In this document: positions 18,858 through 55,429 of the stretch, in pieces
How positions within the stretch are numbered: the stretch's first letter is position 1
Layout: every line of letters starts with the position of its first letter
From: Minisyncoccota bacterium
GTDB lineage: Bacteria; Patescibacteriota; Minisyncoccia; Phycocordibacterales; Phycocordibacteraceae
DNA length: 64,000 bases
Direction: 5' to 3'
NCBI GenBank assembly: GCA_035627595.1
Contig: DASPLK010000001.1
Location: 5,619 to 69,618 of the forward strand
Made by a program: the position numbers and the translations under genes
Notes under the pieces: generated by a model
Told to the model about the DNA's origin: nothing
Database searches by the model: none
Seen by the model: only the letters and a program-made list of their open reading frames with translations

Positions 18858-19424
18858 TTACAGTCCTGACGCCTCTATGCCACGATTCACACGCGTAATC
18901 AGGTCTTTGCGCTTAGCAAGCGCATATTCCCGTGCGGCATTCCCAAAATGACCATCCGTCTGCGGCACCTGCTCTCCCGCATCGAGTCCTGCATCCTGCA
19001 GCAGGTACAGCGCAGCCAGGGTCTCGGCGGCATCCTGCTCTTCGTCCGCCAGCGTCGGTAGTATTTCGAGATACTCCTTGAAGAGCTCGTATATTTCTCC
19101 TCCGCCACTATCAGTCACCAGGCGTAGCATGAGGTTCGCGACGCGGCCGGCGCGCTCGCGTGCGTCTGGTGCTAAATCAGTAAAGTAATCGTGCGCAAGA
19201 ATGGCGCCTGAGAGTCGCCATCCCTCCTTTCCCCTAAGCAAGATCACATCAGATTGAGCGAGCGTCGTGAGCGCGGCGGACAATTTAGCGCCAGGCTTCC
19301 GCACCCCCTGCGCGCGTGCGCGCACAAGCCCGAGCTCGCTTGTTAAAAGAGAGACGAGCGAACTTGCTTCTCCAAGGGGAGATCTCCCGAGCACAATTGC
19401 CTCTGTCGCGTACTTATGACGCAT
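18858..19424 (-). CDS. recO: DNA repair protein RecO (short form)
   Basis: N-terminal OB-fold pattern AIVLGRSPLGEASSLVSLLTSELGLVRARAQGVRKPGAKLSAAL is typical of RecO. 188 aa. It overlaps ileS by 11 nt. Confidence 0.6.
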   Translation of the reverse strand: MRHKYATEAIVLGRSPLGEASSLVSLLTSELGLVRARAQGVRKPGAKLSAALTTLAQSDVILLRGKEGWRLSGAILAHDYFTDLAPDARERAGRVANLMLRLVTDSGGGEIYELFKEYLEILPTLADEEQDAAETLAALYLLQDAGLDAGEQVPQTDGHFGNAAREYALAKRKDLITRVNRGIEASGL

Positions 19425-22400
19425 TTGTGATGGTAAAGCCGACGGAGCCCGTCGATAACTCAGCGGTATGTGGCACTTCCGGAAGCGGAGCGAACTCTAT
19501 ATACGCTGTGCCTGGTACCTGCGCGTCAGAAAGAGTCTCCCGTGCAGATTCCTCAATGGTGATCACGACCTTGTCGCGTGGAGAGAGGTCCATGCTCTTT
19601 CTGGCATCCGCGACCGCGCGCGCGAACTCGCGCTGATCTCCCCTGCGAATAAGCTCGGGTGTAAGTTCCGTATCAAGCGCCACGCTTCCCTCTTCCTTGG
19701 AGGCGTCCATAACTACCTCTTCAACGTTGAGTTCTTCTTTGATGAGCGCGAGGAGTTCCATAGAGAGTGCCGAGCCACCAAGTGTGAGCTTGCCAAGCGG
19801 TTGGCGGACTTTCACATTTGCCCTCTGACGCTCCATAAGCGCAGTCGAGGTGAGTGCGCGCACACGCTTCATATCAGTAAGAAGTGCGGCGTCCCTGTTC
19901 CCAAAGAGTGCGGTAAAGAACTGCTTCTTCATTACCGGCCACTTTGCCAAATGCACACTGATCGGCTCACTTTCCGTACGGATTGCACGGAATATCTCAT
20001 CAGCCACAAACGGCATCACTGGGGCAATGACCTTAGAGAATTCCTTGAGCACATGCTCAAGGGTACGGAGCGCTGCCTGACGGTCAGCCTCGTCGTTCGC
20101 TTTAATGCGATCGCGCGAGCGGCGTACGTACCAGGTGGAAAGATCCTCGACGAAGTCGCGTAGCGGGCGAGCGGCACGCACCAGGTCATAGCGGTCAAAA
20201 GCATCGGTCGTGCCCTCGATAACCTCGGCGAGACGCGCCAGTATCCAGCGGTCGAGTACGTGCGTACTCTCCTTCCCGCGGAGCGATGGATCGAGATCGT
20301 CCTTATACAGCGCATAAAACGCGTAAACGTTCCGGAGCATGTTTACTACGCGATTCTGCGCTTCTTTCACATCTTCGTCGCGGAATGTAAGATCTTCAGC
20401 CTGCATTACTACACTGCCCATAAGGTAGTAGCGGAACGCGTCGGCACCATACAGATCGAAGAGTTGGTACGGATCGGTGTAATTCTTCTTGGACTTCGAA
20501 AGCTTCTCACCGTTTGCGGCGAGAATCGTGCCGGTTGTAACTACGTTCCTAAATGGTGCCCTATCAAAGATCGATACCGAGATTGCGTGCATGTAGTAGA
20601 ACCATGCGCGGGTCTGACCGATGTACTCGGATATGAAATCACCAGGCGAGCGCTTCTCGAAGTCGCCCTTGTGCTCGAAGGGATAGTGGTACTCCGCAAA
20701 TGGCATGGAGCCTGACTCGACCCAACAATCTACAACCTCTGGAATACGCGTAAGCGCAGCGCCCTCTTCGTCGATGAGCTCGACGCGGTCGATGTATGGG
20801 AGATGGAAATCAAGCTCGTAGTTGCGATTGTGTGGAAGTGGCGTAAACGGGAGTTCCATTACCGCACCTGGCTTATGCGACAGGGTCGATGCGTGCTGGC
20901 GTGATTTCTCCTTATCAAGCCCCTCGGCGACTGCGGTGAGTGTTTCAAGACCGCAGCCATGTGTAACGATAAGCACGCACTCATTCTGGTGCGTCTTTTC
21001 TATCTCATAGAGAAACTCGCCAAAGCGGCGCTTTACGTCCTGATAGCTTTCGCCGCCTTCTACCTGCACGTCGTACGCGTGGTCATTCCTCCAAGCGATG
21101 AATTCTTCAAGCGGACGGCCCTCCAGCTTCCCGAACGAAAACTCGCGAAGCCGATCGTCAAAGACGATGTCCGCCTTATCGATGCCAAGACCTTCGGCGG
21201 CCATTTCTGCGGTTTCCTTCGTACGGCGTACGGGCGACGCATAGATGCGCGTCGGCGCACAGGTCTTTAGGAACTCGACGCCTTTCTTTACATCTTCCTT
21301 CCCCTCTTCGGTAAGGCCAAACGTATCAAGCGCGCTGCTGAGGGTCTTGGACGCGGTGTTCTCCGCCTGTCCGTGACGCATGATGTAGTAGCGGTTGCCG
21401 CTCTTCTTCGTGCGCATTTTCAGCTCCTCCAAGGAACCAACGACCGTGACGGCGCCCGTTTTGTCTTTCCATATCGGAAGCGGACTCGCCCAGAAACGGT
21501 TGCGGGAGATCGTCCAGTCAGGAGCTGACTCTATGTTCTTCTTAAACCTGCCGTGCTTTAGGTGCTCCGGCGACCAGTTGATCTTCTCGTTCTCCGCAAG
21601 CATGCGATCCTTCACTGCCTGGATGTCGATGAACCAGCTCGAGACTGCGTTATAGATGAGCGGCGTACCACAGCGGTAGCAGTGCGGATACGAGTGCGTG
21701 TTAGGTGCTTTTGCAAAGAGAAGTCCGCGCGTCTCGAGGTCGTCCTTGATCAGCGGTTCCGCCTTTTTTATATATTGACCCTGGAGGAACTCAGGCGCAT
21801 CTACGTTATAAGTCGCGTTTGGGTTGAGGAGCGGCACCATCGGGAGTCCTTCTTTAAGCCCAAGCTGGTAGTCGTCTTCGCCATAGATGACAGCTGTGTG
21901 CACGACACCAGTACCATCGGTGGTAGTCACGAAGTCTGCAGATAGAACTTCCCACTTCTTCCCCACATGCGCGCGTGCTTTTGCAACGTCATACAGCGGT
22001 TCGTACGAGATTCCTGTAAGGTCGCGGCCCTTCAGCTCCTTCTCGAACTCCGTTACGCCATACGTCTCCATTCGCTCCTTAGCGAGTACGACTGGCACGT
22101 TATTTATACGCACAATGACGTAATCGATGTCTGGACCGACCGCGAGGCCGACATTGCCCGGCAGTGTCCATGGCGTCGTGGTCCACGCGAGTATGTGCGT
22201 GCCTTTTGGAAGACCCTTTGATTCAGGATCGATTATCTTGAACTTTACCGTTACCGCTTCCTCGGTGATGTCCTTATAGGTATTGTCCATCGCAATCTCG
22301 GCCTTTGCGAGCGGAGTCTCGCAGTGTGGGCAGTACATGAGGACCTTGCGTCCTTCATAAAGGCGCCCCTTCTTATGTATTTCTGAAAGCGCCCACCACA

Positions 22401-22872
22401 CACTCTCGATGAACGAGTTGTCCATCGTCTTGTACGAATTATCGAAATCAACAAAGCGCCCGAGCCGCTCAATGTACCGCTTCCACTCATGCACGTATGC
22501 AAGCACCATGGAGCGTGCCTTCTCGTTAAAGTTCTCAATGCCGAGCTCGAGAATGTCCTTCTTGCTTTTGAGACCTAGCTCCGTCTCTACAAGTGATTCG
22601 ATCGGAAGTCCGTGCGTGTCCCAGCCCCAGCGACGGCGCACACGGTATCCCCGCATGGTCTTATATCGCGGAATGACATCCTTAGATGTTGAAGCGAGGA
22701 AGTGGCCAGGGTGCGGGAGACCAGTCGCAAATGGCGGTCCATCATAGAACGTGAACTCGCCCTTCGGGGCAGGCTTTTCGAGTGACTTCTCGAATATCTG
22801 CTGTTCCTTCCAAAACGCGAGTACCTCCTCCTCGCGCTTTGCTATATCCGATTTTCCCCGCTCATCTGCCAT
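19414..22872 (-). CDS. ileS: Isoleucyl-tRNA synthetase (type 2) carrying an inserted histidine-phosphatase (PGAM-like) domain
   Basis: PHPGHFLAS (HIGH region), CP1 editing block TTPWTLPGN and KLSKSKKN (KMSKS). IleRS-collinear blocks flank a ~200-aa insert at about aa 487-688. The insert holds YIMRHGQAEN ... VLIVTHGCGL. Confidence 0.9.
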   Translation of the reverse strand: MADERGKSDIAKREEEVLAFWKEQQIFEKSLEKPAPKGEFTFYDGPPFATGLPHPGHFLASTSKDVIPRYKTMRGYRVRRRWGWDTHGLPIESLVETELGLKSKKDILELGIENFNEKARSMVLAYVHEWKRYIERLGRFVDFDNSYKTMDNSFIESVWWALSEIHKKGRLYEGRKVLMYCPHCETPLAKAEIAMDNTYKDITEEAVTVKFKIIDPESKGLPKGTHILAWTTTPWTLPGNVGLAVGPDIDYVIVRINNVPVVLAKERMETYGVTEFEKELKGRDLTGISYEPLYDVAKARAHVGKKWEVLSADFVTTTDGTGVVHTAVIYGEDDYQLGLKEGLPMVPLLNPNATYNVDAPEFLQGQYIKKAEPLIKDDLETRGLLFAKAPNTHSYPHCYRCGTPLIYNAVSSWFIDIQAVKDRMLAENEKINWSPEHLKHGRFKKNIESAPDWTISRNRFWASPLPIWKDKTGAVTVVGSLEELKMRTKKSGNRYYIMRHGQAENTASKTLSSALDTFGLTEEGKEDVKKGVEFLKTCAPTRIYASPVRRTKETAEMAAEGLGIDKADIVFDDRLREFSFGKLEGRPLEEFIAWRNDHAYDVQVEGGESYQDVKRRFGEFLYEIEKTHQNECVLIVTHGCGLETLTAVAEGLDKEKSRQHASTLSHKPGAVMELPFTPLPHNRNYELDFHLPYIDRVELIDEEGAALTRIPEVVDCWVESGSMPFAEYHYPFEHKGDFEKRSPGDFISEYIGQTRAWFYYMHAISVSIFDRAPFRNVVTTGTILAANGEKLSKSKKNYTDPYQLFDLYGADAFRYYLMGSVVMQAEDLTFRDEDVKEAQNRVVNMLRNVYAFYALYKDDLDPSLRGKESTHVLDRWILARLAEVIEGTTDAFDRYDLVRAARPLRDFVEDLSTWYVRRSRDRIKANDEADRQAALRTLEHVLKEFSKVIAPVMPFVADEIFRAIRTESEPISVHLAKWPVMKKQFFTALFGNRDAALLTDMKRVRALTSTALMERQRANVKVRQPLGKLTLGGSALSMELLALIKEELNVEEVVMDASKEEGSVALDTELTPELIRRGDQREFARAVADARKSMDLSPRDKVVITIEESARETLSDAQVPGTAYIEFAPLPEVPHTAELSTGSVGFTITNAS

Positions 22873-26362: not shown

Positions 26363-27619
26363 TTACACGAACGATTCTGGGACCGCGTGGCTAAGCGCCA
26401 TTGTGCGTATGTCTTCACGCACCTTCCCAGCGTCACGATTTGTGAGGACTTCGATCATAAGCTCTGCGACGCGCGCGCACTCTTCTTTGGTGAAACCGCG
26501 AGTCGTGAGTGCCGGCGTACCAAACCGGATGCCGGAGGGGTCCATGGGCTTACGGGTATCGTCCGCAATCGAGTTCTTATTGAGCGTTATGCCTGCTTCG
26601 TCTAGGAGCTTCTCCGCATCGCCGCCGGAAATATTGAACGAACTCCATACGTCCGCAAGAATGAGGTGGTTATCCGTGCCGCCGGTTATGAGCCGTGCGT
26701 TGTTTGCGGCAAACACTTCTGCCATAGCGGCCGCGTTCTCGACGACATTTGCCGCATAGGTCTTAAACGTTGGACGGAGCGCTTCGCCAAACGCGATAGC
26801 CTTGGCTGCGATCTGGTGCATGTGCGGACCACCCTGGAAGCCAGGGAACACTGCCTTGTCTATCTTCTGCGCAATCTCCTCGTTCTCCCTCGTGAGGATC
26901 ATGCCGCCGCGGGGACCGCGCAACGTCTTATGCGTCGTCGTGGTCATGACATCGAATCCATAATCGAATGGGTTCTTCGCTGCGCCGCCGGCGATAAGGC
27001 CTGCGATATGTGCCACGTCCGCAACCGCATATGCGCCAACTTCCTTTGCGATAGCGGCAATTTTCTCCCAGTTAAGCTCACGCGGGTATGCGGAGAAACC
27101 AGCAAGAATGATCTTGGGCTTCTCGGCTAGCGCGGTTTCGCGCAGCTGCTCGTAGTCGATCTCTCCGGTCTCTATGTCCTTCATCTTGTAGCGGACGAAG
27201 CGGAACACCTTGGAGATGTAAGTGACCGGATGTCCGTGCGTTAGGTGTCCGCCATGAGAGAGATCCATGCCGAGCACGGTATCGCCCGGCTCAAGCAAGG
27301 CCATGTACGCGGCAATGTTCGCGTTAGCACCTCCCAGAGGCTGCACGTTCGCAAATCCTGCACCGAACAACTCCTTTGCACGCGCGATTGCTATCCGCTC
27401 CACTTGGTCGGTGTATTCCTGACCGCCGTAGTAGCGCTTGCCGGGATATCCTTCCGAATACTTATTGGTAAGCACTGAGGACATCGCCTCGCGCACCGCA
27501 AGTGATACATAGTTCTCGCTTGGAATGAGCTCGAGCCCTTCTGCCTCACGATTCTCTTCTCCCTCTATTGTCTTGAAGACCTCAACGTCTTCCCTTTTGA
27601 TGTGGTCGTACATAGCCAT
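26363..27619 (-). CDS. glyA: Serine hydroxymethyltransferase
   Basis: LELIPSENYVS, the TNKYSEGYPGKRYYGG motif and the PLP-Lys region THKTLRGPRGG. Confidence 0.95.
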   Translation of the reverse strand: MAMYDHIKREDVEVFKTIEGEENREAEGLELIPSENYVSLAVREAMSSVLTNKYSEGYPGKRYYGGQEYTDQVERIAIARAKELFGAGFANVQPLGGANANIAAYMALLEPGDTVLGMDLSHGGHLTHGHPVTYISKVFRFVRYKMKDIETGEIDYEQLRETALAEKPKIILAGFSAYPRELNWEKIAAIAKEVGAYAVADVAHIAGLIAGGAAKNPFDYGFDVMTTTTHKTLRGPRGGMILTRENEEIAQKIDKAVFPGFQGGPHMHQIAAKAIAFGEALRPTFKTYAANVVENAAAMAEVFAANNARLITGGTDNHLILADVWSSFNISGGDAEKLLDEAGITLNKNSIADDTRKPMDPSGIRFGTPALTTRGFTKEECARVAELMIEVLTNRDAGKVREDIRTMALSHAVPESFV

Positions 27620-27756: not shown

Positions 27757-28824
27757 ATGCCCTTCATGACCGCTACAGAGCTGAAGCCATACCCTTTCAC
27801 AAATATGGCGGCTACCCCCCTGTTCCCGGTCCGCACAATCGGGCCACTCTTCGAATCAACGCGTTTTAAAGACACCAAAGACCCGTGCATCGCATTTGAT
27901 GGAACGACTTGGCACATATATGGCTCGGGCGGAGATGTGCGAAGCGAGGAATGGCAAATACTCCATGCGACCGCACCCACGATTGAAGGTCCTTGGACTG
28001 AACAGGAGCCAGCGGTTCTGCGCGGCGTTGAAGGGCCGCATGTTGCGGCTCCTTCCGTCATCTATGACTTTGATGACAAGCTCTTTCACATGGCAGTGCA
28101 GAAGGACTTCATGTCTATTGGTGGTGGTATCGCCTATCTAGTCTCTGCGGATGGACACATATTTACCAAAATGCGTACGCTCGTTGAGCCTAAAGGCATG
28201 AGCGAGGCTGGGCTCTATGATCCGCAGTTTGCGCAGATTAAAGGTAAGAAGTATCTCGTGTACTCGGGCATACCTGCTCTACTTTCGTACGACCATCCAT
28301 TCATTCCTCAGCCTGATGTGTATCTCGCGCGCTCGGTCACTGACCGTTGGGTCGGGTATTGGAAGCGCATGAAGCGTGTACTTGCGCATGATGACATCGC
28401 TTGGCACCACAACCGTCTCGGTCACCCTGACTACGAATGGGGCATCGAAGGCCCGCAGATCGTAGAACTTCCTGATGGGAAAATCCTTCTGAACGCGACC
28501 TGCTTCCTCGAAGAGGGACGACGCGGTACCCGGCAGCGCGTATTCTTCGCGCACGCGGATGATGTTAAAGGTCCCTACACGAGTATAGGACCGGTGCTCC
28601 TACCTCCTGATACCGGGTGGGAATCTGGCGAGAACGGACACGCAAGCCTTTGGGTTGAGCATGGATGTTTGTATCTCTTCTACCAAGCGCGCTCCAAGGA
28701 CGAACCTAATCCGCACGACAACAATTGGCGATATGGGATTGCCGTCTACTCGCTTGAAGACATACGCACCGCCCGCGAGCAAGCAGAAAAGCGAGATGAG
28801 GCGCTAGAGGCCAGTGGTGCCTAA
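27757..28824 (+). CDS. Five-bladed beta-propeller glycoside-hydrolase-like protein (GH43/GH117/GH130 clan)
   Basis: DPCIAFDGTTWHIYGSGG N-terminal blade with catalytic-Asp-like DP, then repeated aromatic/Gly blade motifs. The specific family is not assignable by eye. Confidence 0.4.
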   Translation: MPFMTATELKPYPFTNMAATPLFPVRTIGPLFESTRFKDTKDPCIAFDGTTWHIYGSGGDVRSEEWQILHATAPTIEGPWTEQEPAVLRGVEGPHVAAPSVIYDFDDKLFHMAVQKDFMSIGGGIAYLVSADGHIFTKMRTLVEPKGMSEAGLYDPQFAQIKGKKYLVYSGIPALLSYDHPFIPQPDVYLARSVTDRWVGYWKRMKRVLAHDDIAWHHNRLGHPDYEWGIEGPQIVELPDGKILLNATCFLEEGRRGTRQRVFFAHADDVKGPYTSIGPVLLPPDTGWESGENGHASLWVEHGCLYLFYQARSKDEPNPHDNNWRYGIAVYSLEDIRTAREQAEKRDEALEASGA

Positions 28825-29232
28825 TCCGCCCCGCTCCGGTGTGCCGAGCGTATCAACCTCCTTCAGAGTGAACCGGTCGTACGGCATGACGACCATCTGC
28901 GCGACACGGTCGCCGCGCGAGACAAGCACCGGCTCGTCGGTAAAGTTGTAGAGAATAGCGCGGTACTCGTCCGCATCACCGGCATAATCCTCGTCCATAA
29001 TTCCGACACCGTTTGCGAACATGAGGCCACGCTTATGCAGCGAACTTCGAGCGGCAAGGAGTACGAAATGCCCCTTCGGTAACTTAAGTGCGAAGTTAAG
29101 AAATGCGTAGCCTATGCTCTTTGGTGCGATGGTAACGTCCTCGCGCACGTAGCAATCAAGCGCGGTCGCCCCTTCCGTTCCATACGACGGCATTGGCAGA
29201 TCCTTATCGATGCGCCGGATCTCTATATCCAT
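28804..29232 (-). CDS. dut: dUTP diphosphatase; the ORF track extends to 29316, but the start is likely the ATG at 29232
   Basis: Motifs GTEGATALD, RSSL, GVGIMDEDYAGD and DRVAQMVV, and a C-terminal GGLGTTG. Confidence 0.8.
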   Translation of the reverse strand: MDIEIRRIDKDLPMPSYGTEGATALDCYVREDVTIAPKSIGYAFLNFALKLPKGHFVLLAARSSLHKRGLMFANGVGIMDEDYAGDADEYRAILYNFTDEPVLVSRGDRVAQMVVMPYDRFTLKEVDTLGTPERGGLGTTGL

Positions 29233-29234
29233 AC

Positions 29235-29921
29235 CTACGCAGCAAGCTTCCTGACGAGCTCGTACACCTCCTCGTGTATATCTTCCGGCGCGCGCATGGA
29301 ATCCCCCTCCATGCATTCGATGAGGTGCCAGTGCTCCTCGCTTGCGGCAAGCGCGCGGGCGGATGCGTGGCTACGCTCGAGGTACCGCCTATCCTCTTCG
29401 ACTGTATCTCGATCGCCCGTAAGCGTGTGGTTCTTGACCGAACGCTTCTCCTGCAAAAGCCTAAGCGATATCTCGACCGGCACATCAAGATAGATGACTG
29501 CATCCGGTACCGGCACCCCGAGGACGCCGTGCTCCATCTCCTTAAGCCAAGACAGGAAGAGTATGCGGTCCTCCTCATCCTCTATCTTCCCTGCCTGATG
29601 GATCATGTTGGCGCTCGTGAAGCGGTCGGAGATAACGATCTTCCCTTCCAATAGCCACTGCCGTATCTGCGGCGACGCCTCCTGGCGGTCGAGTGCATAC
29701 GGGAGCGACGCAAGCTTTGGGTCGAGGTTCACGAAGTCGCCGTGTTCTCCGGCAAGGCACTCGGCAAGAAGTTTTCCGAAAAATTGGTCCTGGTATCGCG
29801 GGAAGTCTATCTTCTCGGATGCGATGCCTTCATTGCCAAGACGTTCTGCCAGCATCTTTGCCTGGGTTGCCTTCCCGGACCCGTCGTTCCCGTCGAGCAC
29901 GATGAATCGTCCGTTATGCAT
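29235..29921 (-). CDS. tmk: Thymidylate kinase; the ORF track extends to 29969
   Basis: P-loop FIVLDGNDGSGKATQ, DRQEASP and a lid region. Confidence 0.85.
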   Translation of the reverse strand: MHNGRFIVLDGNDGSGKATQAKMLAERLGNEGIASEKIDFPRYQDQFFGKLLAECLAGEHGDFVNLDPKLASLPYALDRQEASPQIRQWLLEGKIVISDRFTSANMIHQAGKIEDEEDRILFLSWLKEMEHGVLGVPVPDAVIYLDVPVEISLRLLQEKRSVKNHTLTGDRDTVEEDRRYLERSHASARALAASEEHWHLIECMEGDSMRAPEDIHEEVYELVRKLAA

Positions 29922-30399
29922 ATGTGCCGAGGATATTATCCGGATGCGACTTATTAAAGAGGCGCTCACTTCCCTCCATGAGATATACGCGCGCTATACC
30001 AGCATCTAATATTGCGCTCCAACAGGGTTCGCACGCCCACCAGTGTCCCCAGAGGTATAAATCAGCACCATCAACTGAATCCAACTTAGAAAGTGCGGCT
30101 CTGATAGCGCGCACTTCGCTATGGTTCTTAGGATGGCAGCCTTCGCAGAGCTCATACCCTTCCCCTGTCGGAACATTGCGCTTCACGCGCTCGCACTCCT
30201 GCTTCTTATGAAAATCGCTTCCATTTGCCCCCTCTCCGACAACAACACCATCAACGACAACTACCGATCCCGTCTTCACCGCATCATCCATAGAGTGTGC
30301 GAGCGCATAGTTTCGAGCCGCTGCCATGAATGGGTTCCCTTCCTCTACATAGAGGAAGCTGCGCCCTTCCGGCAGATAGGGGTATGAGATGGGTCCCAT
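29914..30399 (-). CDS. dCMP deaminase (ComEB/cytidine-deoxycytidylate deaminase family)
   Basis: Zinc motifs HSEVRAIRAA and ACEPCWSAI (the H-A-E ... PC..C deaminase signature). Confidence 0.8.
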   Translation of the reverse strand: MGPISYPYLPEGRSFLYVEEGNPFMAAARNYALAHSMDDAVKTGSVVVVDGVVVGEGANGSDFHKKQECERVKRNVPTGEGYELCEGCHPKNHSEVRAIRAALSKLDSVDGADLYLWGHWWACEPCWSAILDAGIARVYLMEGSERLFNKSHPDNILGTYA

Positions 30400-30459: not shown

Positions 30460-31305
30460 ATGGCTCTCATGGCCCGCTTCGACACCCTCTATCAGGAAAT
30501 GCTTCAGAAGATCCTTACCGAAGGCACCAGGGAGCTTTCAGAGCGCACTGGGCACGAGACTACCGCCATCCCCGGCCTCCACTTCTCCATTGATATTGAA
30601 AAGGAAGGCTTCCCGCTCCTTACCCTCCGAAAGATACCGATTCCAATGTTCGTCGCCGAGCAGATCTGGTTCATCGCAGGCCTTCGGAAGCCCGCGGATT
30701 TCTTGCGCGACTACACCAAAATCTGGGACGGGTTCACAAACCCTAACGACGTCGTCACGGTCGCGTATGGATACCGCTGGAGACGGCACTTCGGCCGTGA
30801 TCAGCTAAAACTCCTCATTGAGCTTTTGAAGAAGGAGCCGTCCTCCCGACACGGGGTCATCGTTACCTGGGATCCGGCAAGCGACGGTCTTTCACTCTTC
30901 AAGAAGAAGAACGTTCCCTGCCCCTACTCTTTCACTGTGAACATCATCGGCGGCCGGCTACACCTACACAACATCGTGCGTTCGAATGACATGTACCTCG
31001 GCTTCCCTGCAGATGTTGCCGGGTTCGCTCTCCTGCAGTGCATCCTCGCGCAGAAGCTCGGCGTCACGCCTGGTGTGTACTCGCATTCAATCTCCAACGC
31101 GCACCTATATGACAATCAGTATGACGCAGTAAAAGAACTGATCTCTCGCAAGGACGAGCACCCGGCGATACATCTCACGCTTCCTAAAAATGCGTACGAC
31201 CGTGCGGAGAAGAAGGATCGCACCTTGGTTGAAGAGATGGTTGCCGACATAACGAGCAAGTATTCCCCGCAGCCTGCAATTTCTGGCGTAAAGGTTATTC
31301 TGTAG
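30460..31305 (+). CDS. thyA: Thymidylate synthase ThyA; a TATAAT overlaps the first ATG, so the real start may be the ATG at 30469 (leaderless)
   Basis: FPLLTLRKIPIPMFVAEQIWFIAG, the catalytic Cys region PCPYSF and a DMYLGFP-type motif. Confidence 0.95.
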   Translation: MALMARFDTLYQEMLQKILTEGTRELSERTGHETTAIPGLHFSIDIEKEGFPLLTLRKIPIPMFVAEQIWFIAGLRKPADFLRDYTKIWDGFTNPNDVVTVAYGYRWRRHFGRDQLKLLIELLKKEPSSRHGVIVTWDPASDGLSLFKKKNVPCPYSFTVNIIGGRLHLHNIVRSNDMYLGFPADVAGFALLQCILAQKLGVTPGVYSHSISNAHLYDNQYDAVKELISRKDEHPAIHLTLPKNAYDRAEKKDRTLVEEMVADITSKYSPQPAISGVKVIL

Positions 31306-31307
31306 CT

Positions 31308-31940
31308 ATGGCAATCCTCACGAAGACCGACATCTTGGAACGCGTCGCATCCGGCGAACTAGCGTTCACGCCGAATCTAGACGCGTTCCAGCTCCAGAGC
31401 CACGCGGTGGACTTGCGGCTTGGATTTACCTTTCTCATGCCCAAAGCGTGGCGCTTGACCGACAACGGCCGCGAGGCGGTTGATATCGATCCACTGAAGG
31501 ATCACGGCCCAGAATACTTCGATATCATCGAACTTGAGCAGGGCCAGTATTTTGAACTCCTTCCAGGAGAATATGTGCTCGTTTCTTCACTTGAGTCCCT
31601 GAAAGTGCCAAATGACATCATGGCAGTGCTCTATCCCCGCTCCTCGATTAACCGCAAAGGTCTCTCGGTCGACCTCACGGGCATTATTGATTCAGGATAC
31701 GAAGGTCCCTTGACCCTCCCCGTCAGGAATAACACTCGCTCCACCGTCCGCATCCACCCGGGCGAGCGCTTCTGCCAGGTCGTGTTCGAAGAACTCACCG
31801 CTCCCATCGAAGATCCGCGCAAGAGTCGCTGGCATCAGAAAGATGTCGTCGAGAAGGGCCCGAAGGAGAAGTCGGTAGAAATGAAACTCGTCTTTGAGGG
31901 CGACATCCGCAAACTGAAGCAGGACCATCCTGCTTCCTGA
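31308..31940 (+). CDS. dcd: dCTP deaminase
   Basis: MAILTKTDILERVASGELAFTPNLDAFQLQSHAVDLRLG N-terminus typical of Dcd. dUTPase-like fold motifs. Confidence 0.8.
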   Translation: MAILTKTDILERVASGELAFTPNLDAFQLQSHAVDLRLGFTFLMPKAWRLTDNGREAVDIDPLKDHGPEYFDIIELEQGQYFELLPGEYVLVSSLESLKVPNDIMAVLYPRSSINRKGLSVDLTGIIDSGYEGPLTLPVRNNTRSTVRIHPGERFCQVVFEELTAPIEDPRKSRWHQKDVVEKGPKEKSVEMKLVFEGDIRKLKQDHPAS

Positions 31941-31945
31941 CACCC

Positions 31946-32386
31946 ATGGAGGAGCTTCAGAAACTCCTCGCCCCCTACCGTGCATTCATAACGTACACGC
32001 CGCTGCGCACCGAGGTTTATGCGCATGCGCTTTTTGATACGGATGGTGCGGTTATGTACCTTATAGAGCCGCGCGCTTCTCTTGATCCTAAGGAAGAGGC
32101 GCTTGCGGCTATGAAGACTGCGGGAGATCTACCCACTGCGATACTCGTGCCGGGACGCAGATTCGATGCTTCCGGCACGCGGCACGGCCAGGGCGGCGGC
32201 TGGTACGACCGGTTCCTTGCTCGGGTGCCGAGCGAGTGGCTGCGGGTAGGATTCTGCTTTGACGATCAGTTCTCCCTAGTCCCGCTTGTACGGAACGCGT
32301 GGGACCAGCCTGTGGACTACATATGCGTCATAGATCGGAAATCAGGAGGTATGAAGATATACGCCTCTGGTAGACTGGTCGCATGA
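31946..32386 (+). CDS. 5-formyltetrahydrofolate cyclo-ligase family protein (short)
   Basis: VPGRRFDASGTRHGQGGGWYDRFL matches the MTHFS G-x-G-x-G-YYDR motif. Confidence 0.6.
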   Translation: MEELQKLLAPYRAFITYTPLRTEVYAHALFDTDGAVMYLIEPRASLDPKEEALAAMKTAGDLPTAILVPGRRFDASGTRHGQGGGWYDRFLARVPSEWLRVGFCFDDQFSLVPLVRNAWDQPVDYICVIDRKSGGMKIYASGRLVA

Positions 32387-32904
32387 AGCCTCGCGTCTCA
32401 GCTATCGTCGCCATCGGCGACGATCTCGTAATCGGAAAAGGCAACGGGTTGCTCTGGCATATTCCAGACGACCTAAAGCGCTTCAAAGAGCTCACGCTCG
32501 GGCATCCGGTCGTGATGGGGCGCAAAACTTTTGATTCCATCCTCGCCATCCTCGGCAAGCCGTTGCCGGGGCGTACCAGTATCGTTATTACGCGCGACGC
32601 TGAGTGGTCGCATGACGGCGCGATCGTAGCCCATTCCCTACAGGAAGCACTCAAGAAAGCTAGCGCGCTTGATCAAGAGGAAGTGTTTGTGATTGGTGGC
32701 GGACAAATATATAAAGAAGCATTCGATCAGCTCGACCGCATCTATCTCACTCGCATCTTCGATGCTAAGGAAGGCGACACTTTCTTCCCTCCCTACGAGC
32801 ACGTATTCACTGAAAAGCTGTTTGAGGAGCAGCGCACGTGGAATGACATCACGTACTGCTGGATTGATCTCGACCGCCCTGCTGCCACGGAAGATCCTTC
32901 ATAA
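32383..32904 (+). CDS. folA: Dihydrofolate reductase
   Basis: SAIVAIGDDLVIGKGNGLLWHIPDDLKRFKELTLGHPVVMGRKTFDSI. Confidence 0.9.
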   Translation: MKPRVSAIVAIGDDLVIGKGNGLLWHIPDDLKRFKELTLGHPVVMGRKTFDSILAILGKPLPGRTSIVITRDAEWSHDGAIVAHSLQEALKKASALDQEEVFVIGGGQIYKEAFDQLDRIYLTRIFDAKEGDTFFPPYEHVFTEKLFEEQRTWNDITYCWIDLDRPAATEDPS

Positions 32905-33604
32905 AAGGCGCGAATATATCTTCCTCTACGGGGAATGTGAATGAGTTCCCTTCCGACCTCTTTCCGATCTGTGTAGTAGATACGTATGGCGCATTCTTGA
33001 TACGCACAAGCGGCGTGCCTTCATTCGCCTCACCCATGACTAACACCGCTGCGGCAGCTAATGAGTCTGGCAGGTTCGTCTGACTGCCGGAAGTCGCGGC
33101 GCCAGTTAGATCATGTCGCATACGGTTGTCATAGATAGGTTCGAACCCCGCCCAAGCGACCGCCATGCCAACAACACCGCGTCTAAGAAACACACTGCGG
33201 GAGTCTGTAAGGACGAGATAGAGGTGCTCTTTTTGGTACGTCTCCTTAAACCAGGTAAGGAGTCTGTCGGCGCTCCTTTGCGGATCCTCGGGCCAGAGCA
33301 CGTAGTAATCACCAAACGGGTCGATACCCGCGTTTGGTATGAGCGTGCCGTTTGTAATGGTATGCATTACAAACCCACCGGGAGTGTGTTCGCGAGCAAG
33401 ATAGGCACCCGCCTCCGCGGCGACAAGCGCATCAACATCAGTACCCTCTTTTAAGACACATCTCCCCTCGCCTATAGCGACTACCTTTGAGGAGATAACA
33501 ATGACGTCATGCTCTTCGAGAGTAAGCGAGGAAGCTTTGATCTTCGCGTATAGGTCGTCCTTTGGTGGGACGAGCGTATCAATATGTATGGGGGTAATTT
33601 CCAT
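32849..33604 (-). CDS. CofE-family (F420-0:gamma-glutamyl ligase-like) protein
   Basis: Block-by-block match to CofE: VIVISSKVVAIGEGR, NAGID, LVLTDSRSVFLRRGVVGMAVAWAG and DLTGAATSG...LVMGEANEGTP. It converges on folA with a 56-nt overlap. Confidence 0.65.
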   Translation of the reverse strand: MEITPIHIDTLVPPKDDLYAKIKASSLTLEEHDVIVISSKVVAIGEGRCVLKEGTDVDALVAAEAGAYLAREHTPGGFVMHTITNGTLIPNAGIDPFGDYYVLWPEDPQRSADRLLTWFKETYQKEHLYLVLTDSRSVFLRRGVVGMAVAWAGFEPIYDNRMRHDLTGAATSGSQTNLPDSLAAAAVLVMGEANEGTPLVRIKNAPYVSTTQIGKRSEGNSFTFPVEEDIFAPFMKDLPWQQGGRDQSSST

Positions 33605-33677
33605 CTGCGTATTCTACCTAAAATGCAAAACCCCCGCCGTTTCCGGCAGGGGTTCGCAACGATACTGGTGAAGTGGA

Positions 33678-34322
33678 TCAGGCAGCGATCGCAGCGGCCG
33701 CGAGGTGTCCCATGATGACGGGACGCGCCTGAGGCCAGCCGCGGACGATCTCGATCTTGCGCGCCGGAGCGGGCTTGATTACGTCGCAGCCGATGCCGCC
33801 AGGTTCCGGAAGCAGGAACACGAGCAGAACACCCTTGCGGCCGCGCAGCTGGTACAGATGCGAGACCTTGGTGTCGACGACTACGTCGCATTCTTCGAGA
33901 TGGCTCAGGACCGTCCTGCCGCTGTTGCGGACGAACTCCAGCCTGATGTCCTTCGGGAAGTTGTTCTGCCGCCACCAGGAAAGCACGTACGGCTCCGAAG
34001 TGGCCCGGAAATTTACCACCGGGACGACGTCGTGTCCGTTCGCCTTCAGCATCTGGACCATGTTCACGGCGCCCGGAACGGGCTGTCGTGCGTACTGGAA
34101 CAGCTTGCCGTTCTCGAAAAGCTCGCACTTCGACTCCTCGTAGAGCTCGGCGGTATACTCCCTTCCTCGCCCCCCGTTGGCGCCCGGATACGTGTGTCCG
34201 ATGGACGCCTTCCCCCCGAATTGCCCCGGGGGGATCAGCATGCCGCCGCGCTCGCACGCATATGCATGGAGTGCACGGTCGACCTGGATAAGGCCGGTGA
34301 CGCTGATCCCGATTTTCGCCAT
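33678..34322 (-). CDS. Hypothetical protein in a GC-rich island; weak similarity to 5'(3')-deoxyribonucleotidase (NT5C/HAD-like) with the DxD motif replaced
   Basis: The region is ~63-65% GC and open in three frames. This frame has the most protein-like composition. The C-terminal half is loosely collinear with NT5C (PVPGAV...VVPV...W...P...V). Confidence 0.3.
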   Translation of the reverse strand: MAKIGISVTGLIQVDRALHAYACERGGMLIPPGQFGGKASIGHTYPGANGGRGREYTAELYEESKCELFENGKLFQYARQPVPGAVNMVQMLKANGHDVVPVVNFRATSEPYVLSWWRQNNFPKDIRLEFVRNSGRTVLSHLEECDVVVDTKVSHLYQLRGRKGVLLVFLLPEPGGIGCDVIKPAPARKIEIVRGWPQARPVIMGHLAAAAIAA

Positions 34323-49498: not shown

Positions 49499-50107
49499 TT
49501 AGCGGAGCACGTGCGCGATCCTTCGTGAGAGCACAGGGATTTCCAGCGTGTCGTTTCGCACCACCCACTTATACAGAGCTGGCGAAAGCGCGAGCGTGAA
49601 TACGACGGTGCCCAACAGATGCATGAGGGTGAACGGAATCTGGCCAATCACTGCAACCATCAATGACTGCCCGAAGAAGATCGGGCCGGTCATAAGTCCC
49701 GTCACCGCGTCATAGACGAGCGTTCCTACGATACCGAACGCGAGGAAGTTCTTCGTGGAGGCCTTCCTGTTCTGGAAGAAGAGGTGCGCGCCAGCACCCA
49801 AAGCGCCGTACATGAATCCGGTGACCACCGTCCACATACCAATACCAGAGGTCACGAGATCAAAGAGCGCGATGCCGAGGAAGCCAAAAAGGAAGGAGGT
49901 GAGGAAACCGAAGCGAGTCGCAAACGGCATCATAGTCGCAAGCATCGGCTCAAAGTTCGCCGGGCGCATGGGAAGAAGGCGGATAAGGAAGACCGCCGCG
50001 AAGCCGATAATGAGCTTGAGCCAGCCGGTTTTAATAGAGATGGTCTGCATAGGAATCCCATTGTAGCCGAGGAGAGCCCAAGGTCCAACCGTGGTATAAC
50101 TGCCCAA
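49499..50107 (-). CDS. ECF-transporter S-component-like membrane protein (6 TM); the start is possibly Met20 (50050)
   Basis: ~185-aa core with 6 hydrophobic helices and a loop, LIRLLPMRPANFEPMLATMMPFATRFG, of the kind seen in ECF substrate-capture proteins. Confidence 0.45.
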   Translation of the reverse strand: MGSYTTVGPWALLGYNGIPMQTISIKTGWLKLIIGFAAVFLIRLLPMRPANFEPMLATMMPFATRFGFLTSFLFGFLGIALFDLVTSGIGMWTVVTGFMYGALGAGAHLFFQNRKASTKNFLAFGIVGTLVYDAVTGLMTGPIFFGQSLMVAVIGQIPFTLMHLLGTVVFTLALSPALYKWVVRNDTLEIPVLSRRIAHVLR

Positions 50108-50310: not shown

Positions 50311-50937
50311 TTGGGACGAGTCCGGTCATCAGACAGCCTATTATTCCCGAGCAGGAGCGTGCGCTTCAATATGGATTCCACAACTCTGCTCGTGCGGAGC
50401 TTTTTATTTATCTCTATGACCCGACGAACTCTTCTTCTCATCGCCCCTCTTCTGATCGTGCTCGTACTTATCGCTGCCTATGCACTTAAGCCACAAGCTG
50501 AAGCACCCGCGATACCAGAACAGGCGCAGGAAAATACTGAAGTGCCGGTAGAAGCTTCTGAGAATGAAGAGCCGGCGCCGGTTGAAGATCCGGTGTTCGC
50601 AGTCGCGAAGCGTGAAGCGGCAGCTGATATGTCAGCAGCACTTGCGCCAGCAACGGCGACAATGATTGTTGAGGGCATCTCTCATCCGGTCCGAGCGCCT
50701 GAAGGCGCGACGATCGAGGAAGCGATGGCAGGACTTAGGGCCGAGGGTGTGCTTACGTACAAGCTGCGCTCATACACGGGCCTCGGCTCCTTCGTCACGG
50801 AGATAAATGGAAAGTCCGACACGAACGAGTACTATTGGATCCTCCATATAAATGGCAAGAAGTCGGCAACCGGCATCTCGCAGACGCGCATTAGCTCTGG
50901 TGACGTTGTCGAATGGAAATATGAACATAAGTATTAG
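50311..50937 (+). CDS. Membrane-anchored DUF4430-domain protein (transcobalamin beta-domain-like)
   Basis: N-terminal TM helix and a Pro/Glu/Ala linker. The C-terminal domain ends ...NEYYWILHINGKKSATGISQTRISSGDVVEWKYE (the YW..NG...G.....L..GD.V.W motif of DUF4430). Confidence 0.55.
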   Translation: MGRVRSSDSLLFPSRSVRFNMDSTTLLVRSFLFISMTRRTLLLIAPLLIVLVLIAAYALKPQAEAPAIPEQAQENTEVPVEASENEEPAPVEDPVFAVAKREAAADMSAALAPATATMIVEGISHPVRAPEGATIEEAMAGLRAEGVLTYKLRSYTGLGSFVTEINGKSDTNEYYWILHINGKKSATGISQTRISSGDVVEWKYEHKY

Positions 50938-50941
50938 AGCT

Positions 50942-54169: not shown

Positions 54170-55429
54170 ATGCAGGCACTTCGCTCAATTCTGCAGCGCA
54201 TACTTCCCCGCTCCTTGTACCGAGCGCTTCTTCGCCCATATCATCTTCTCTTTGCATTTCTTGCCGCCCTTCGTTATGGCTTTCCAGCAAAGGACATGAC
54301 CGTCATTGCGGTCACCGGCACAAAGGGCAAATCCTCCGTTACAGAGATGCTCTTCCATGTACTTAGCTATGCCGGCCTTCCCGCAGCGGTCGCAGGAACC
54401 ATCAGCTTCAAGATTCTCAATGAGGAGAAGCCGAACCTATTCAAAATGACCATGCCGGGGCGCGGATTCATTCAACGCTTTCTACGCGAGGCGTCTGATA
54501 AGGGAGCGAAGTATGCAGTCATTGAGGTTACCTCAGAAGCAACACTGCAGTTTCGCCACTACTTCCTTTCCTTAGACGCGCTTATATTTACGAACCTCCA
54601 GAAGGAGCACATCGAGTCGCATGGATCATTTGAGAACTACGCGCGCGCGAAACTCTCAATCGGCACCGCGCTCGCGCGCTCCGTGAAGCGTCCGCGCGCC
54701 ATTATTGCCAACGCCGACACAGTGCACAGCGAACCGTATCTTGAGCTTCCGGTCGAGGAGAAGCTCCCCTTCTCATACATAGATGCGTACGATGTTGAGC
54801 TTGGTCCCGGCACCGCCACGTTCTCATACAAAGACGCGCGCTTCACCCTCCAGCTCCCGGGCGGATTTAGCATCATGAACGCGCTTGCAGTCATCAAGGC
54901 CGCTGAATTCCTTGGCGTACCACTTCCGAAAATTGCTGAGGCGCTTTCTGATTTAAAGCGCATACCCGGACGCACCGAGCGTATTGATGTCGGACAGGAC
55001 TTCCAAGTCGTCGTCGATTACGCGCACACGCCTGACTCCTTGGAAGCCTTGTATGGCGCGTATCCAAATAGGAAAATCTGCGTACTCGGAAACACAGGCG
55101 GTGGGCGTGACACATGGAAGCGCCCTTCCATGGGTGCGATCGCGGACAAAGCATGCGACATCGTTATCCTTACGGACGAAGATCCATATGACGAGGACCC
55201 AATGAAGATCGTGCATGAGATGGCAAAGGGCATGGAGCGTACGCCGAAGATAATCATGGACCGCAGGGAGGCTATACGCGCCGCGATAGCAGAAGCGAGC
55301 ACCGGTGACTCCGTTCTCATCACCGGCAAAGGTACTGATCCGTACATCATGCGTGCAAACGGCCAGAAGGAGCCTTGGAGTGATGCACAGGTAGTTCGTG
55401 AGGAACTAGCGAAGCTCTTAGGTAAATAG
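54170..55429 (+). CDS. Mur-ligase-family protein (MurE-like central and C-terminal domains, no N-terminal UDP-substrate domain)
   Basis: The VIAVTGTKGKSS P-loop and the VVVDYAHTPDSLEALY motif (DYAHTPD is MurE-like). Only 419 aa. Confidence 0.55.
   Translation: MQALRSILQRILPRSLYRALLRPYHLLFAFLAALRYGFPAKDMTVIAVTGTKGKSSVTEMLFHVLSYAGLPAAVAGTISFKILNEEKPNLFKMTMPGRGFIQRFLREASDKGAKYAVIEVTSEATLQFRHYFLSLDALIFTNLQKEHIESHGSFENYARAKLSIGTALARSVKRPRAIIANADTVHSEPYLELPVEEKLPFSYIDAYDVELGPGTATFSYKDARFTLQLPGGFSIMNALAVIKAAEFLGVPLPKIAEALSDLKRIPGRTERIDVGQDFQVVVDYAHTPDSLEALYGAYPNRKICVLGNTGGGRDTWKRPSMGAIADKACDIVILTDEDPYDEDPMKIVHEMAKGMERTPKIIMDRREAIRAAIAEASTGDSVLITGKGTDPYIMRANGQKEPWSDAQVVREELAKLLGK

Follow-up and report, generated by a model that had tools for sequence, protein, structure and literature searches.

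A probable FolC2-type folylglutamate ligase, publicly named as an F420 enzyme, beside folA in a Paceibacteria genome

Next to the dihydrofolate reductase gene folA in the window, by which we mean the whole 64,000-nucleotide stretch of DNA from a tiny-genome Paceibacteria bacterium analysed here, lies a gene whose product is probably a folylglutamate ligase of the FolC2 type, a substitute for FolC of the Mur-ligase type. As judged from its sequence, the 251-residue product is most likely a divergent Paceibacteria member of the known FolC2 family that has been misnamed as an F420 enzyme. FolC2 (CT611, COG1478), a homologue of CofE, was predicted as a replacement of FolC, and the CT611 protein of Chlamydia makes up for the loss of folC in an E. 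coli mutant (de Crécy-Lagard 2007, PMC1971073); the case was restated in 2014 (Adams 2014, PMC4161248), and the family has an NCBIfam model of its own, TIGR04132 ("putative folate metabolism gamma-glutamate ligase"). A first-pass annotation of this DNA had put forward the glutamylation of folate by a CofE-like enzyme as a plausible and uncharacterised function. Folate glutamylation is the reading best supported by sequence, tree and gene context; "uncharacterised" does not stand, FolC2 having been predicted by reasoning of this very sort and validated by complementation in 2007. Literature searches for folC or FolC2 in Patescibacteria or the CPR gave nothing relevant. The features of the locus are the following.

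26363-27619, minus strand: glyA, serine hydroxymethyltransferase (PF00464, E 4e-149)
28804-29316, minus strand: dUTPase (PF00692, E 7e-19; 129 aa in the public calls)
29235-29969, minus strand: tmk, thymidylate kinase (PF02223, E 5e-20; the public calls start later, giving 221 aa)
29914-30399, minus strand: dCMP/cytidine deaminase (PF00383, E 2.9e-9)
30460-31305, plus strand: thyA, folate-dependent thymidylate synthase (PF00303, E 3.5e-52)
31308-31940, plus strand: dcd, dCTP deaminase (PF22769, E 7e-35)
31946-32386, plus strand: short MTHFS-like protein of the 5-formyl-THF cyclo-ligase family, 146 aa (PF01812, E 3.9e-13)
32383-32904, plus strand: folA, dihydrofolate reductase, 173 aa (PF00186, E 2.8e-48)
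32849-32904, no strand: 56 nt shared by folA and the ligase gene where their 3' ends converge (ORF list and public gene calls)
32849-33604, minus strand: CofE-fold gamma-glutamyl ligase (PF01996), FolC2-like, 251 aa, ATG start (ORF list and public gene call)
33628-33655, minus strand: predicted terminator-like hairpin with a 12-bp stem, 8 G-C pairs and a T-run (consensus match only)
33678-34322, minus strand: 214-aa ORF that separates the ligase gene from rplK (gene call in two assemblies)

The coding sequence of the ligase was called independently in two public assemblies. Its convergence on folA with an overlap of 56 nt, and the neighbouring MTHFS and thyA genes, had been pointed out in the first-pass annotation, and both observations are borne out, the folate neighbourhood extending further to dcd, the dCMP deaminase, tmk, dUTPase and glyA genes. 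The MTHFS-like protein covers the C-terminal half of PF01812 only (profile positions 104-185 of 186) and scores 58 bits on TIGR02727, under the cutoff of 84.9. Together, glyA, thyA and folA make up a complete thymidylate cycle in the window. On the other side, the predicted hairpin closely precedes the ligase start codon, between the ligase gene and a block formed by secE, nusG, rplK and the 214-aa ORF; co-transcription of the ligase gene with the co-directional secE-nusG-rplK genes, to which it is linked in 24/25 loci, is unlikely here because of this strong terminator-like element. The 214-aa ORF has no Pfam or NCBIfam match and no tblastn match in 69 loci (±10 kb of the ligase gene).

The window ligase is a CofE-superfamily protein (PF01996/COG1478), the similarity being far above chance. 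Pfam family PF01996 (F420_ligase) matches it with an E value of 3.3e-32 and 112 bits (cutoff 25), a phmmer comparison with the A. fulgidus CofE structures gives an E value of 1.3e-13, and its AlphaFold model (pLDDT 85.4) resembles CofE entries 7ULD and 2PHN in the PDB (Foldseek; E 2e-16, TM 0.68, 26% identity). All four sequence blocks from which homology to CofE had first been proposed are present in the translation, namely VIVISSKVVAIGEGR (residues 34-48), NAGID (91-95), LTDSRSVFLRRGVVGMAVAWAG (132-153) and GEANEGTP (191-198), and the PF01996 match backs that proposal. Public names differ from one family member to the next: the NCBI record of the window protein reads "coenzyme F420-0:L-glutamate ligase", and some Patescibacteria homologues (P0009, P0056) are entered as "putative folate metabolism gamma-glutamate ligase" or "dihydrofolate synthase / folylpolyglutamate synthase".

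The best NCBIfam model for the window ligase is that of FolC2, TIGR04132, which it matches over the full length (model positions 1-241 of 241) with 172.7 bits, a score under the curated cutoff of 350 of this hypothetical-equivalog model; true members score 352-377 bits and intermediate lineages 191-345. On the CofE equivalogs TIGR01916, NF009809 and NF009810 it reaches 95.4, 98.2 and 65.7 bits against cutoffs of 180.65, 274 and 304, respectively, where genuine CofE controls obtain 297-368 bits. The controls separate: CofE of A. fulgidus scores 73 bits on TIGR04132 against 368 on the CofE model, that of Methanocella 89 against 297, and the Chlamydiales FolC2 P0235 357 against 110. P0235, which is above the TIGR04132 cutoff, and the operon-embedded P0174 served as proxies for CT611 of C. 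trachomatis. FolC2 proteins including P0174 are 36-37% identical to the window ligase (E 1e-49 to 1e-51) and A. fulgidus CofE (Af-CofE) is 29% identical (E 2e-19). Counter to the FolC2 assignment run, in the sequence, a score of 173 bits where 350 is the cutoff, the identity of about 36% to FolC2 of the validated type and a changed loop after NAGID, and, in the gene context described below, the convergent arrangement with folA, the equally conserved rplK/nusG linkage, a close relative (L005) with no folate genes within 10 kb, and the non-folate neighbours of several FolC2-like genes in other phyla.

In a neighbour-joining tree of 60 sequences (Kimura-corrected p-distances, 200 bootstraps), from which CT611 itself is absent and in which P0235 and P0174 stand in for it, the window ligase groups with FolC2 and not with CofE. 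It belongs to a separate Paceibacteria clade (98% bootstrap) that branches as sister to the chlamydial/proteobacterial clade or close to it; the grouping of Paceibacteria with FolC2-like sequences has 85% bootstrap, or 98.5% when two basal sequences (L051, L057) are included, and the split of the whole FolC2-like superclade from CofE 98.5%. Residues T82, Y101, W151, F154, N177, P233 and W240 are common to the Paceibacteria and FolC2 proteins, and both have a C-terminal tail (DIFAPF...W) that CofE is without.

The gene order around the ligase is conserved in related Paceibacteria. Among loci with enough flank, folA follows the ligase gene in convergent orientation in 28/29, and thyA and glyA are each present in 24/25; in 10 related loci the stop codons of the ligase gene and folA overlap by 4-20 nt. 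Since the upstream linkage to rplK/nusG is equally kept (24/25 related loci), synteny with folA alone could reflect general conservation of gene order, and the two genes, being convergent, share no operon. Further folate context comes from two members of the Paceibacteria clade (L021, L015), in which a CADD/CT610-like-folP-folB-folK set lies 7-9 kb from the ligase gene; this route needs a dihydrofolate synthase and therefore counts for the FolC2 reading. A Holosporales homologue is followed by a FolK-FolP fusion gene, a Peribacteria homologue has glyA upstream, and P0174 sits in an operon of the order folB-folKP-folA-[FolC2-family ligase]-CT610-like, which is that of the chlamydial folate cluster folB-folKP-folA-folC2-ct610 (PMC4161248). 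Beyond the Paceibacteria, the Holosporales and the operon of the Chlamydiae type, the folate context is patchy, several FolC2-like genes of other phyla having non-folate neighbours.

In the regions searched, no other candidate for the addition of glutamate to folates was seen. A tblastn search with E. coli FolC of the window and 33 related loci (±10 kb; 583,563 bp in all) gave no match at E <= 1e-3. The only Mur ligase found in the window (54170-55429), which had been described as MurE-like rather than FolC-like, is indeed so: considered as a short FolC on account of its FolC-like length and two-domain layout, it was ruled out by scores of 304 bits on TIGR01085 (murE; cutoff 257) and 52 on TIGR01499 (folC; cutoff 162). 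The first-pass annotation had held that a bona fide folC and a complete F420 pathway elsewhere in the genome would speak against its proposal; neither was found in the window or in the 33 related loci (±10 kb), the regions to which this statement applies.

Conceivably, the protein is an active CofE-fold gamma-glutamyl or amino-acid ligase whose substrate is neither F420 nor folate but some other carboxylated cofactor or metabolite, in which case the adjacency of folA would be inherited order only. The convergent, non-operonic arrangement with folA and the equally conserved rplK linkage fit this view, as do a close relative (L005) with no folate genes within 10 kb, the many FolC2-like genes in non-folate contexts elsewhere, the score under the TIGR04132 cutoff, and a post-NAGID loop that resembles neither characterised group. 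We nevertheless consider it unlikely: the clade-specific residues and the C-terminal tail are held in common with FolC2, intermediate sequences bridge the Paceibacteria clade and validated-type FolC2 in both scores (206-302 bits) and tree, the adjacent folate and thymidylate enzymes need polyglutamylated folate for which the window and 33 loci offer no other candidate, and those clade members that have folP, folB and folK need a DHFS.

The active site is largely that of the superfamily. D95, D134, S135 and E192 of the window ligase align with D109, D150, T151 and E208 of Af-CofE, which are taken to be its metal ligands. Their counterparts are invariant (the third being S or T) in 18/18 sequences of the Paceibacteria clade, 25/25 FolC2-like sequences and 8/8 CofE, and R141 and D229 are likewise conserved in all three groups. 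The exception is the loop after NAGID. NAGIDxSN, which includes S111 and N112 of Af-CofE, is invariant in CofE and FolC2 (25/25 FolC2-like sequences), whereas the core Paceibacteria clade has NAGID-P-F-G, the loss of SN being accompanied by a one-residue deletion after NAGID; the active-site-proximal loop is therefore unlike that of every characterised relative. A role for S111 or N112 in CofE is unmentioned in the text and supplements of PMC10861534. The window ligase also has G196 where FolC2 has Q. The lost SN and the deletion might be taken as signs of a CofE-fold protein that is degenerate or no longer catalytic, such as one that binds folate or has a regulatory role and has given up ligase activity. 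This is very improbable given that 26 clade members, 52-72% identical to the window ligase, have 47 invariant columns that hold D95, D134, S135 and E192, that is, all counterparts of the presumed metal ligands, and the MGE.NE.TP motif; in the alignment, the invariance of these active-site columns indicates strong purifying selection.

The positions that differ from CofE are those around the F420 chromophore. In Af-CofE the isoalloxazine ring is contacted by the G153-C155 segment, R234 and F92 (PMC10861534). G153-R154-C155 is replaced by S137-V138-F139 in the window ligase (S-V-F in its clade) and by T-T-P in FolC2, and R234 by F224 and I, respectively, with the qualification that the alignment near R234 is less certain; F92 aligns with F78, a position that varies within the Paceibacteria clade. 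K45 (8/8 CofE) and R242 (7/8) are both replaced in the Paceibacteria and FolC2 clades. R234, found in 7/8 CofE sequences only, was ruled out as a universal CofE signature. In the comparison with characterised CofE that the earlier annotation had recommended, the presumed metal-binding and catalytic residues are kept and the chromophore contacts are lost, in a ligase that falls outside the CofE clade. Its remark that F420 genes are not evident here agrees with our scan: no CofC, CofD, CofG or CofH family member occurs in the set of 40 larger window ORFs that were compared with Pfam, and the public gene calls for the flanking ±10 kb include no cofC/fbiD, cofD/fbiA, cofG or cofH/fbiC. That the protein is a genuine F420-0:L-glutamate ligase, extending the glutamate tail of its own F420 or of F420 scavenged from a host such as a methanogen, is very improbable, in that membership in PF01996, the NCBI name of the exact protein, the fact that among its relatives structures have been solved for CofE only, and the reported attachment of some Paceibacteria to methanogens are outweighed by three CofE equivalog scores far under cutoff, a position across the 98.5% split from CofE, the replaced chromophore contacts (G153-R154, R234), the lack of CofC, CofD, CofG and CofH among the scanned ORFs and conserved neighbours that are folate and dTMP genes.

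Set beside the known systems, the window ligase is closest to FolC2 (CT611/TIGR04132/COG1478), with which it has in common the fold and superfamily, the best full-length HMM match, the clade residues and tail, the replaced F420-chromophore contacts, and an association with folA and further folate genes, FolC being absent from the searched regions. It differs from FolC2 in the NAGIDPFG loop and in its separate clade; moreover, the window gene is convergent with folA where the chlamydial type lies inside the folate operon, and no de novo folate genes were seen in the window. With CofE and the FbiB N-terminal domain (TIGR01916, NF009809; PDB 2PHN, 2G9I, 7ULD) it shares the fold, the counterparts of D109, D150, T151 and E208, the MGE motif and, presumably, the chemistry, in which a nucleotide-dependent acyl phosphate is attacked by glutamate (PMC10861534); it departs from them in its identity of 26-29%, its scores under all CofE cutoffs, its replaced G153-R154-C155, R234, K45 and R242, its extra C-terminal tail and its lack of F420 genes nearby. 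With FolC, the Mur-family DHFS/FPGS (TIGR01499), it has in common only the proposed reaction and role, the glutamylation of dihydropteroate and folates; the folds and families are unrelated, and the replacement would therefore be a non-orthologous displacement.

As a FolC2-type enzyme, the protein would be an amide-bond ligase dependent on a divalent metal and, presumably, on a nucleotide. The gamma-carboxylate of folate, its likely substrate, or the carboxylate of dihydropteroate would be converted to an acyl phosphate, to which L-glutamate would then be added. The enzyme may be an FPGS only, serving folate salvage, or may have DHFS activity as well; in the window, where genes of de novo folate synthesis were not seen, its role may be confined to FPGS. 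Polyglutamylation in the Paceibacteria cell would allow folates to be retained and well used by the adjacent thymidylate cycle, in which GlyA would provide CH2-THF, ThyA would use it to make dTMP and DHF, and FolA would return DHF to THF, the MTHFS-like protein possibly supplying salvaged 5-formyl-THF. Taken more widely, and still tentatively, Paceibacteria (CPR) may possess a patchwork folate pathway in the style of Chlamydia, in which glutamylation would fall to a distinct FolC2 clade of deep divergence whose active-site loop has been remodelled (NAGIDPFG in place of NAGIDxSN); some members would combine it with a CADD-type pABA synthase and folP, folB and folK, and in genomes like that of the window it would be a pure folate-retention polyglutamylase for salvaged folates.

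The name F420-0 ligase, given to this protein and to many of its Patescibacteria homologues, wrongly suggests F420 metabolism in the CPR; the evidence favours the FolC2 name. Retention of folA, glyA and folD is common among CPR genomes. In 2025, a complementarity in folate between CPR bacteria and their hosts was proposed (PMC11974145), a study in which folC and polyglutamylation go unmentioned in the text and the available supplements. With a putative folate polyglutamylase conserved beside folA, Paceibacteria cells would themselves retain and use folates and, if this role is true, it bears on the folate-exchange proposal because polyglutamylated folates stay inside the cell and are not exported. 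The concept of FolC2, known since 2007, is itself unchanged by the window ligase. The range of FolC2, hitherto one of obligate intracellular bacteria, would now include a large environmental clade of ultra-small cells, and a few of its members carry the CADD-type pABA route earlier described in Chlamydia.

The ligase gene is called with the same coding sequence in two independent public assemblies (one from ENA, on a 124,705-bp contig, and one from Logan), and the exact protein is found in NCBI (P0001) under the name "coenzyme F420-0:L-glutamate ligase", where its source is given as Paceibacteria, a member of the Patescibacteria/CPR group.

32849..33604 (-): ligase gene, 251 aa, ATG start

All of the motifs quoted in the first-pass annotation occur in the translation of this frame, and the homology to CofE that it proposed is solid. 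The protein matches PF01996 (Pfam, E 3.3e-32) and the CofE structures from Archaeoglobus fulgidus (phmmer, E 1.3e-13), and an AlphaFold2 model built from a 26-sequence alignment (pLDDT 85.4, pTM 0.85) retrieved the CofE entries 7ULD, 2PHN and 2G9I in a Foldseek search of the PDB (E 2e-16, TM 0.68, 26% identity), with no PDB match other than CofE.

Within this superfamily, the top NCBIfam model is TIGR04132, "putative folate metabolism gamma-glutamate ligase", which the window protein matches over its full length at 172.7 bits, the CofE equivalogs scoring 95-98 bits. Control proteins were used to calibrate the contrast between TIGR04132 and TIGR01916.

Bit scores of control proteins and of the window protein
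A. fulgidus CofE: TIGR04132, 73; TIGR01916, 368
Methanocella CofE (locus L053): TIGR04132, 89; TIGR01916, 297
Chlamydiales FolC2 proxy (P0235): TIGR04132, 357 (above the cutoff of 350); TIGR01916, 110
Window protein: TIGR04132, 172.7; TIGR01916, 95.4

Graded intermediates from Woesebacteria, Peribacteria, Holosporales, Gammaproteobacteria, SAR116 and Bacillota score 191-345 bits on TIGR04132, with a lower CofE score in every case. BLASTP identity is 36-37% (E 1e-49 to 1e-51) against proteins of the FolC2 type and 29% (E 2e-19) against A. fulgidus CofE (Af-CofE). The phylogeny called for in the first-pass annotation was built by neighbor joining from 60 sequences, CT611 itself being absent from the set, and groups the window protein with FolC2-like sequences apart from CofE (98.5% bootstrap). 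The protein falls inside a Paceibacteria clade (98%), which joins the FolC2-like sequences at 85%, rising to 98.5% once two basal sequences are included. An exhaustive search indicated a family of moderate size, with 1319, 566 and 90 representatives of 50%-identity clusters at E <= 1e-3, 1e-10 and 1e-30, respectively.

Residues were compared in the alignment underlying this tree, in which the CofE set comprises eight sequences. D109, D150, T151 and E208 of Af-CofE, which we take to be the metal ligands, correspond to D95, D134, S135 and E192 of the window protein, and these positions, together with R141, the MGE motif and D229, are invariant in the Paceibacteria clade, FolC2-like proteins and CofE. 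The conservation of the CofE active site raised at first pass holds for these residues but not for G153-C155 and R234, which contact F420 in CofE. The isoalloxazine of F420 is held in CofE by an extended G153-C155 segment, by R234 of the dimer partner and by F92 (PMC10861534); G153 and R154 are invariant in our CofE set (8/8) and R234 is found in 7/8. The G153-C155 segment is replaced by S137-V138-F139 in the window protein and by T-T-P in FolC2, and R234 by F224 and I, respectively, in a region where the alignment is less certain. At the conserved CofE positions K45 and R242, Paceibacteria and FolC2 alike have I/L and A, and these two groups have in common T82, Y101, W151, F154, N177, P233, W240 and a C-terminal "DIFAPF...W" tail, none of which is shared with CofE. 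Such shared replacements and shared residues argue for a head-group pocket remodelled in the FolC2 direction, with the ligase chemistry apparently kept. The main sequence-level ground for caution is a loop that sets the core clade apart from both characterised groups: NAGIDxSN, whose S111 and N112 are invariant in CofE and FolC2, reads NAGID-P-F-G with a one-residue deletion in the core Paceibacteria clade. PMC10861534 and its supplements make no mention of a role for S111 or N112.

The genomic context was surveyed with one genome per GTDB species, yielding 69 loci, 33 of them in the Paceibacteria clade (42-72% identity). The 56-nt overlap of the ligase and folA coding sequences described at first pass was confirmed by ORF coordinates, Pfam and public gene calls.

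31946-32386 (+): MTHFS-like gene, 146 aa, matching positions 104-185 of the 186 in the 5-FTHF cyclo-ligase profile
32383..32904 (+): folA, converging on the ligase gene
33628-33655 (-): terminator-like hairpin, 12-bp stem and T-run, between the 214-aa ORF and the ligase ATG
33678-34322 (-): 214-aa ORF between rplK and the ligase gene, called as a gene in two assemblies

Past folA lie the short MTHFS-like gene, dcd, thyA, a dCMP deaminase gene, tmk, a dUTPase gene, a weak GH43-like ORF and glyA, so that the neighbourhood holds a complete thymidylate cycle (GlyA, ThyA, FolA) along with dUMP supply and dTMP phosphorylation. The MTHFS-like protein covers the C-terminal half of its profile only, scores under the NCBIfam equivalog cutoff and is possibly truncated or divergent. 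Just 5 clade loci out of 33 have a detectable homologue adjoining the ligase gene or folA. The other flank carries secE, nusG, rplK and the 214-aa ORF on the strand of the ligase gene. This ORF, with no Pfam or NCBIfam match and no tblastn match in the 69 loci, looks like a lineage-specific insertion. Because the strong terminator-like hairpin separates the upstream block from the start codon, the ligase gene looks like a separate transcription unit. A TAGAAT -10-like hexamer (site 33605-33616, (-)) ends 6 nt before the ATG; no Shine-Dalgarno was found at the gene, the promoter scan was silent at this site and, speculatively, the mRNA could be leaderless.

Across the Paceibacteria clade, folA is convergent and directly downstream in 28 of the 29 loci whose downstream flank spans 2 kb or more, the stop codons overlapping in 10 of these 28, and thyA and glyA are within reach in 24/25. 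Since rplK upstream of the ligase gene is equally conserved (24/25) and the arrangement with folA is tail-to-tail, synteny by itself is suggestive but not decisive. Independent lineages add weight: a FolK-FolP fusion is the next co-directional gene in Holosporales, glyA is directly upstream in Peribacteria, and a weak ECF S-component match, which at 27.6 bits misses the Pfam cutoff of 30.7, is directly upstream in Levyibacteria. Two Paceibacteria-clade loci, L021 (809-3155) and L015 (1-2373), have an operon at 7-9 kb from the ligase gene that comprises a CT610/CADD-like gene (Haem_oxygenas_2/TENA), folP, folB and folK, whose predicted products represent a Chlamydia-type pABA synthase and late folate synthesis enzymes in CPR bacteria; as dihydropteroate would be made, these cells would need a dihydrofolate synthase. 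The operon of the FolC2 proxy P0174 (folB-folKP-folA-ligase family member-CT610-like-Vut_1) is the chlamydial folate cluster of Adams et al. 2014 (PMC4161248). In a Bacillota MAG (L046, 1525-2642), a FolC2-like gene is followed by genes for a RibA-type GTP cyclohydrolase II and QueH, a pairing that may be meaningful because RibA of Chlamydia provides the first pterin step of its patchwork folate pathway (PMC4161248).

A conventional FolC was sought in the window, whose sole Mur ligase was considered as a candidate.

54170-55429 (+): MurE-type Mur-ligase protein, 419 aa

Its length and layout resemble FolC, but 304 bits on TIGR01085 (cutoff 257) versus 52 bits on the folC model (cutoff 162) favour MurE, bearing out the first-pass view. 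The protein is without an N-terminal domain, the TIGR01085 match starting at model position 72, and Pfam shows Mur_ligase_M and Mur_ligase_C only. FolC, FolP, FolK, CofC, CofD, CofG and CofH are absent by Pfam from the 40 window ORFs scanned, in agreement with the earlier remark that F420 biosynthesis genes are not evident. The suggested search for folC, run by tblastn in all frames over the window and the 33 clade loci (583,563 bp), found no relative of E. coli FolC at E <= 1e-3.

Elsewhere in the window, our own scan and public precomputed hits agree on a histidine-phosphatase insert splitting the catalytic domain of a tRNA synthetase, and three neighbouring ORFs are a possible module for vitamin uptake.

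19414-22872 (-): class-I/isoleucyl tRNA synthetase, 1152 aa, His_Phos_1 insert at residues 496-660
49499-50107 (-): weak ECF S-component-like protein
50311-50937 (+): DUF4430 protein
50852-53230 (+): 792-aa protein with faint squalene-cyclase-like repeats

The function proposed at first pass was thought to be uncharacterised; the same idea had been put forward as FolC2 by de Crécy-Lagard et al. 2007, who noted chlamydiae without folC and a COG1478/CofE homologue inside their folate cluster, and whose Figure 5A shows folC2 clustering, a 5-formyl-THF cycloligase gene included (PMC1971073). In that work the chlamydial protein CT611 complemented a folC mutant of E. coli. Some Patescibacteria homologues are already publicly named according to TIGR04132 or as "dihydrofolate synthase / folylpolyglutamate synthase", and our literature search found no paper connecting FolC2 with Patescibacteria. 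The window protein is most likely a divergent FolC2-type ligase, a new member of a known enzyme type. The analysis shows its family and fold, the catalytic residues, the remodelled pocket, its clade and the gene linkage; its substrate, nucleotide and DHFS-versus-FPGS scope are inferred. Homology with CofE, whose mechanism is given in PMC10861534, points to a probable dimer that carries two divalent metal ions. GTP (possibly ATP) would be used to phosphorylate either a folate, at its terminal gamma-carboxylate, or dihydropteroate, at its carboxylate, and L-glutamate would capture the resulting acyl phosphate. Given that genes for folate synthesis de novo were not seen in the window and that cofactor synthesis is generally missing in CPR bacteria (PMC11974145), salvaged folate is likely polyglutamylated, and would thereby be retained in the cell for use by GlyA, ThyA and FolA. 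The value of the finding is modest and lies mainly in the correction of an annotation and in a missing piece of CPR folate physiology.
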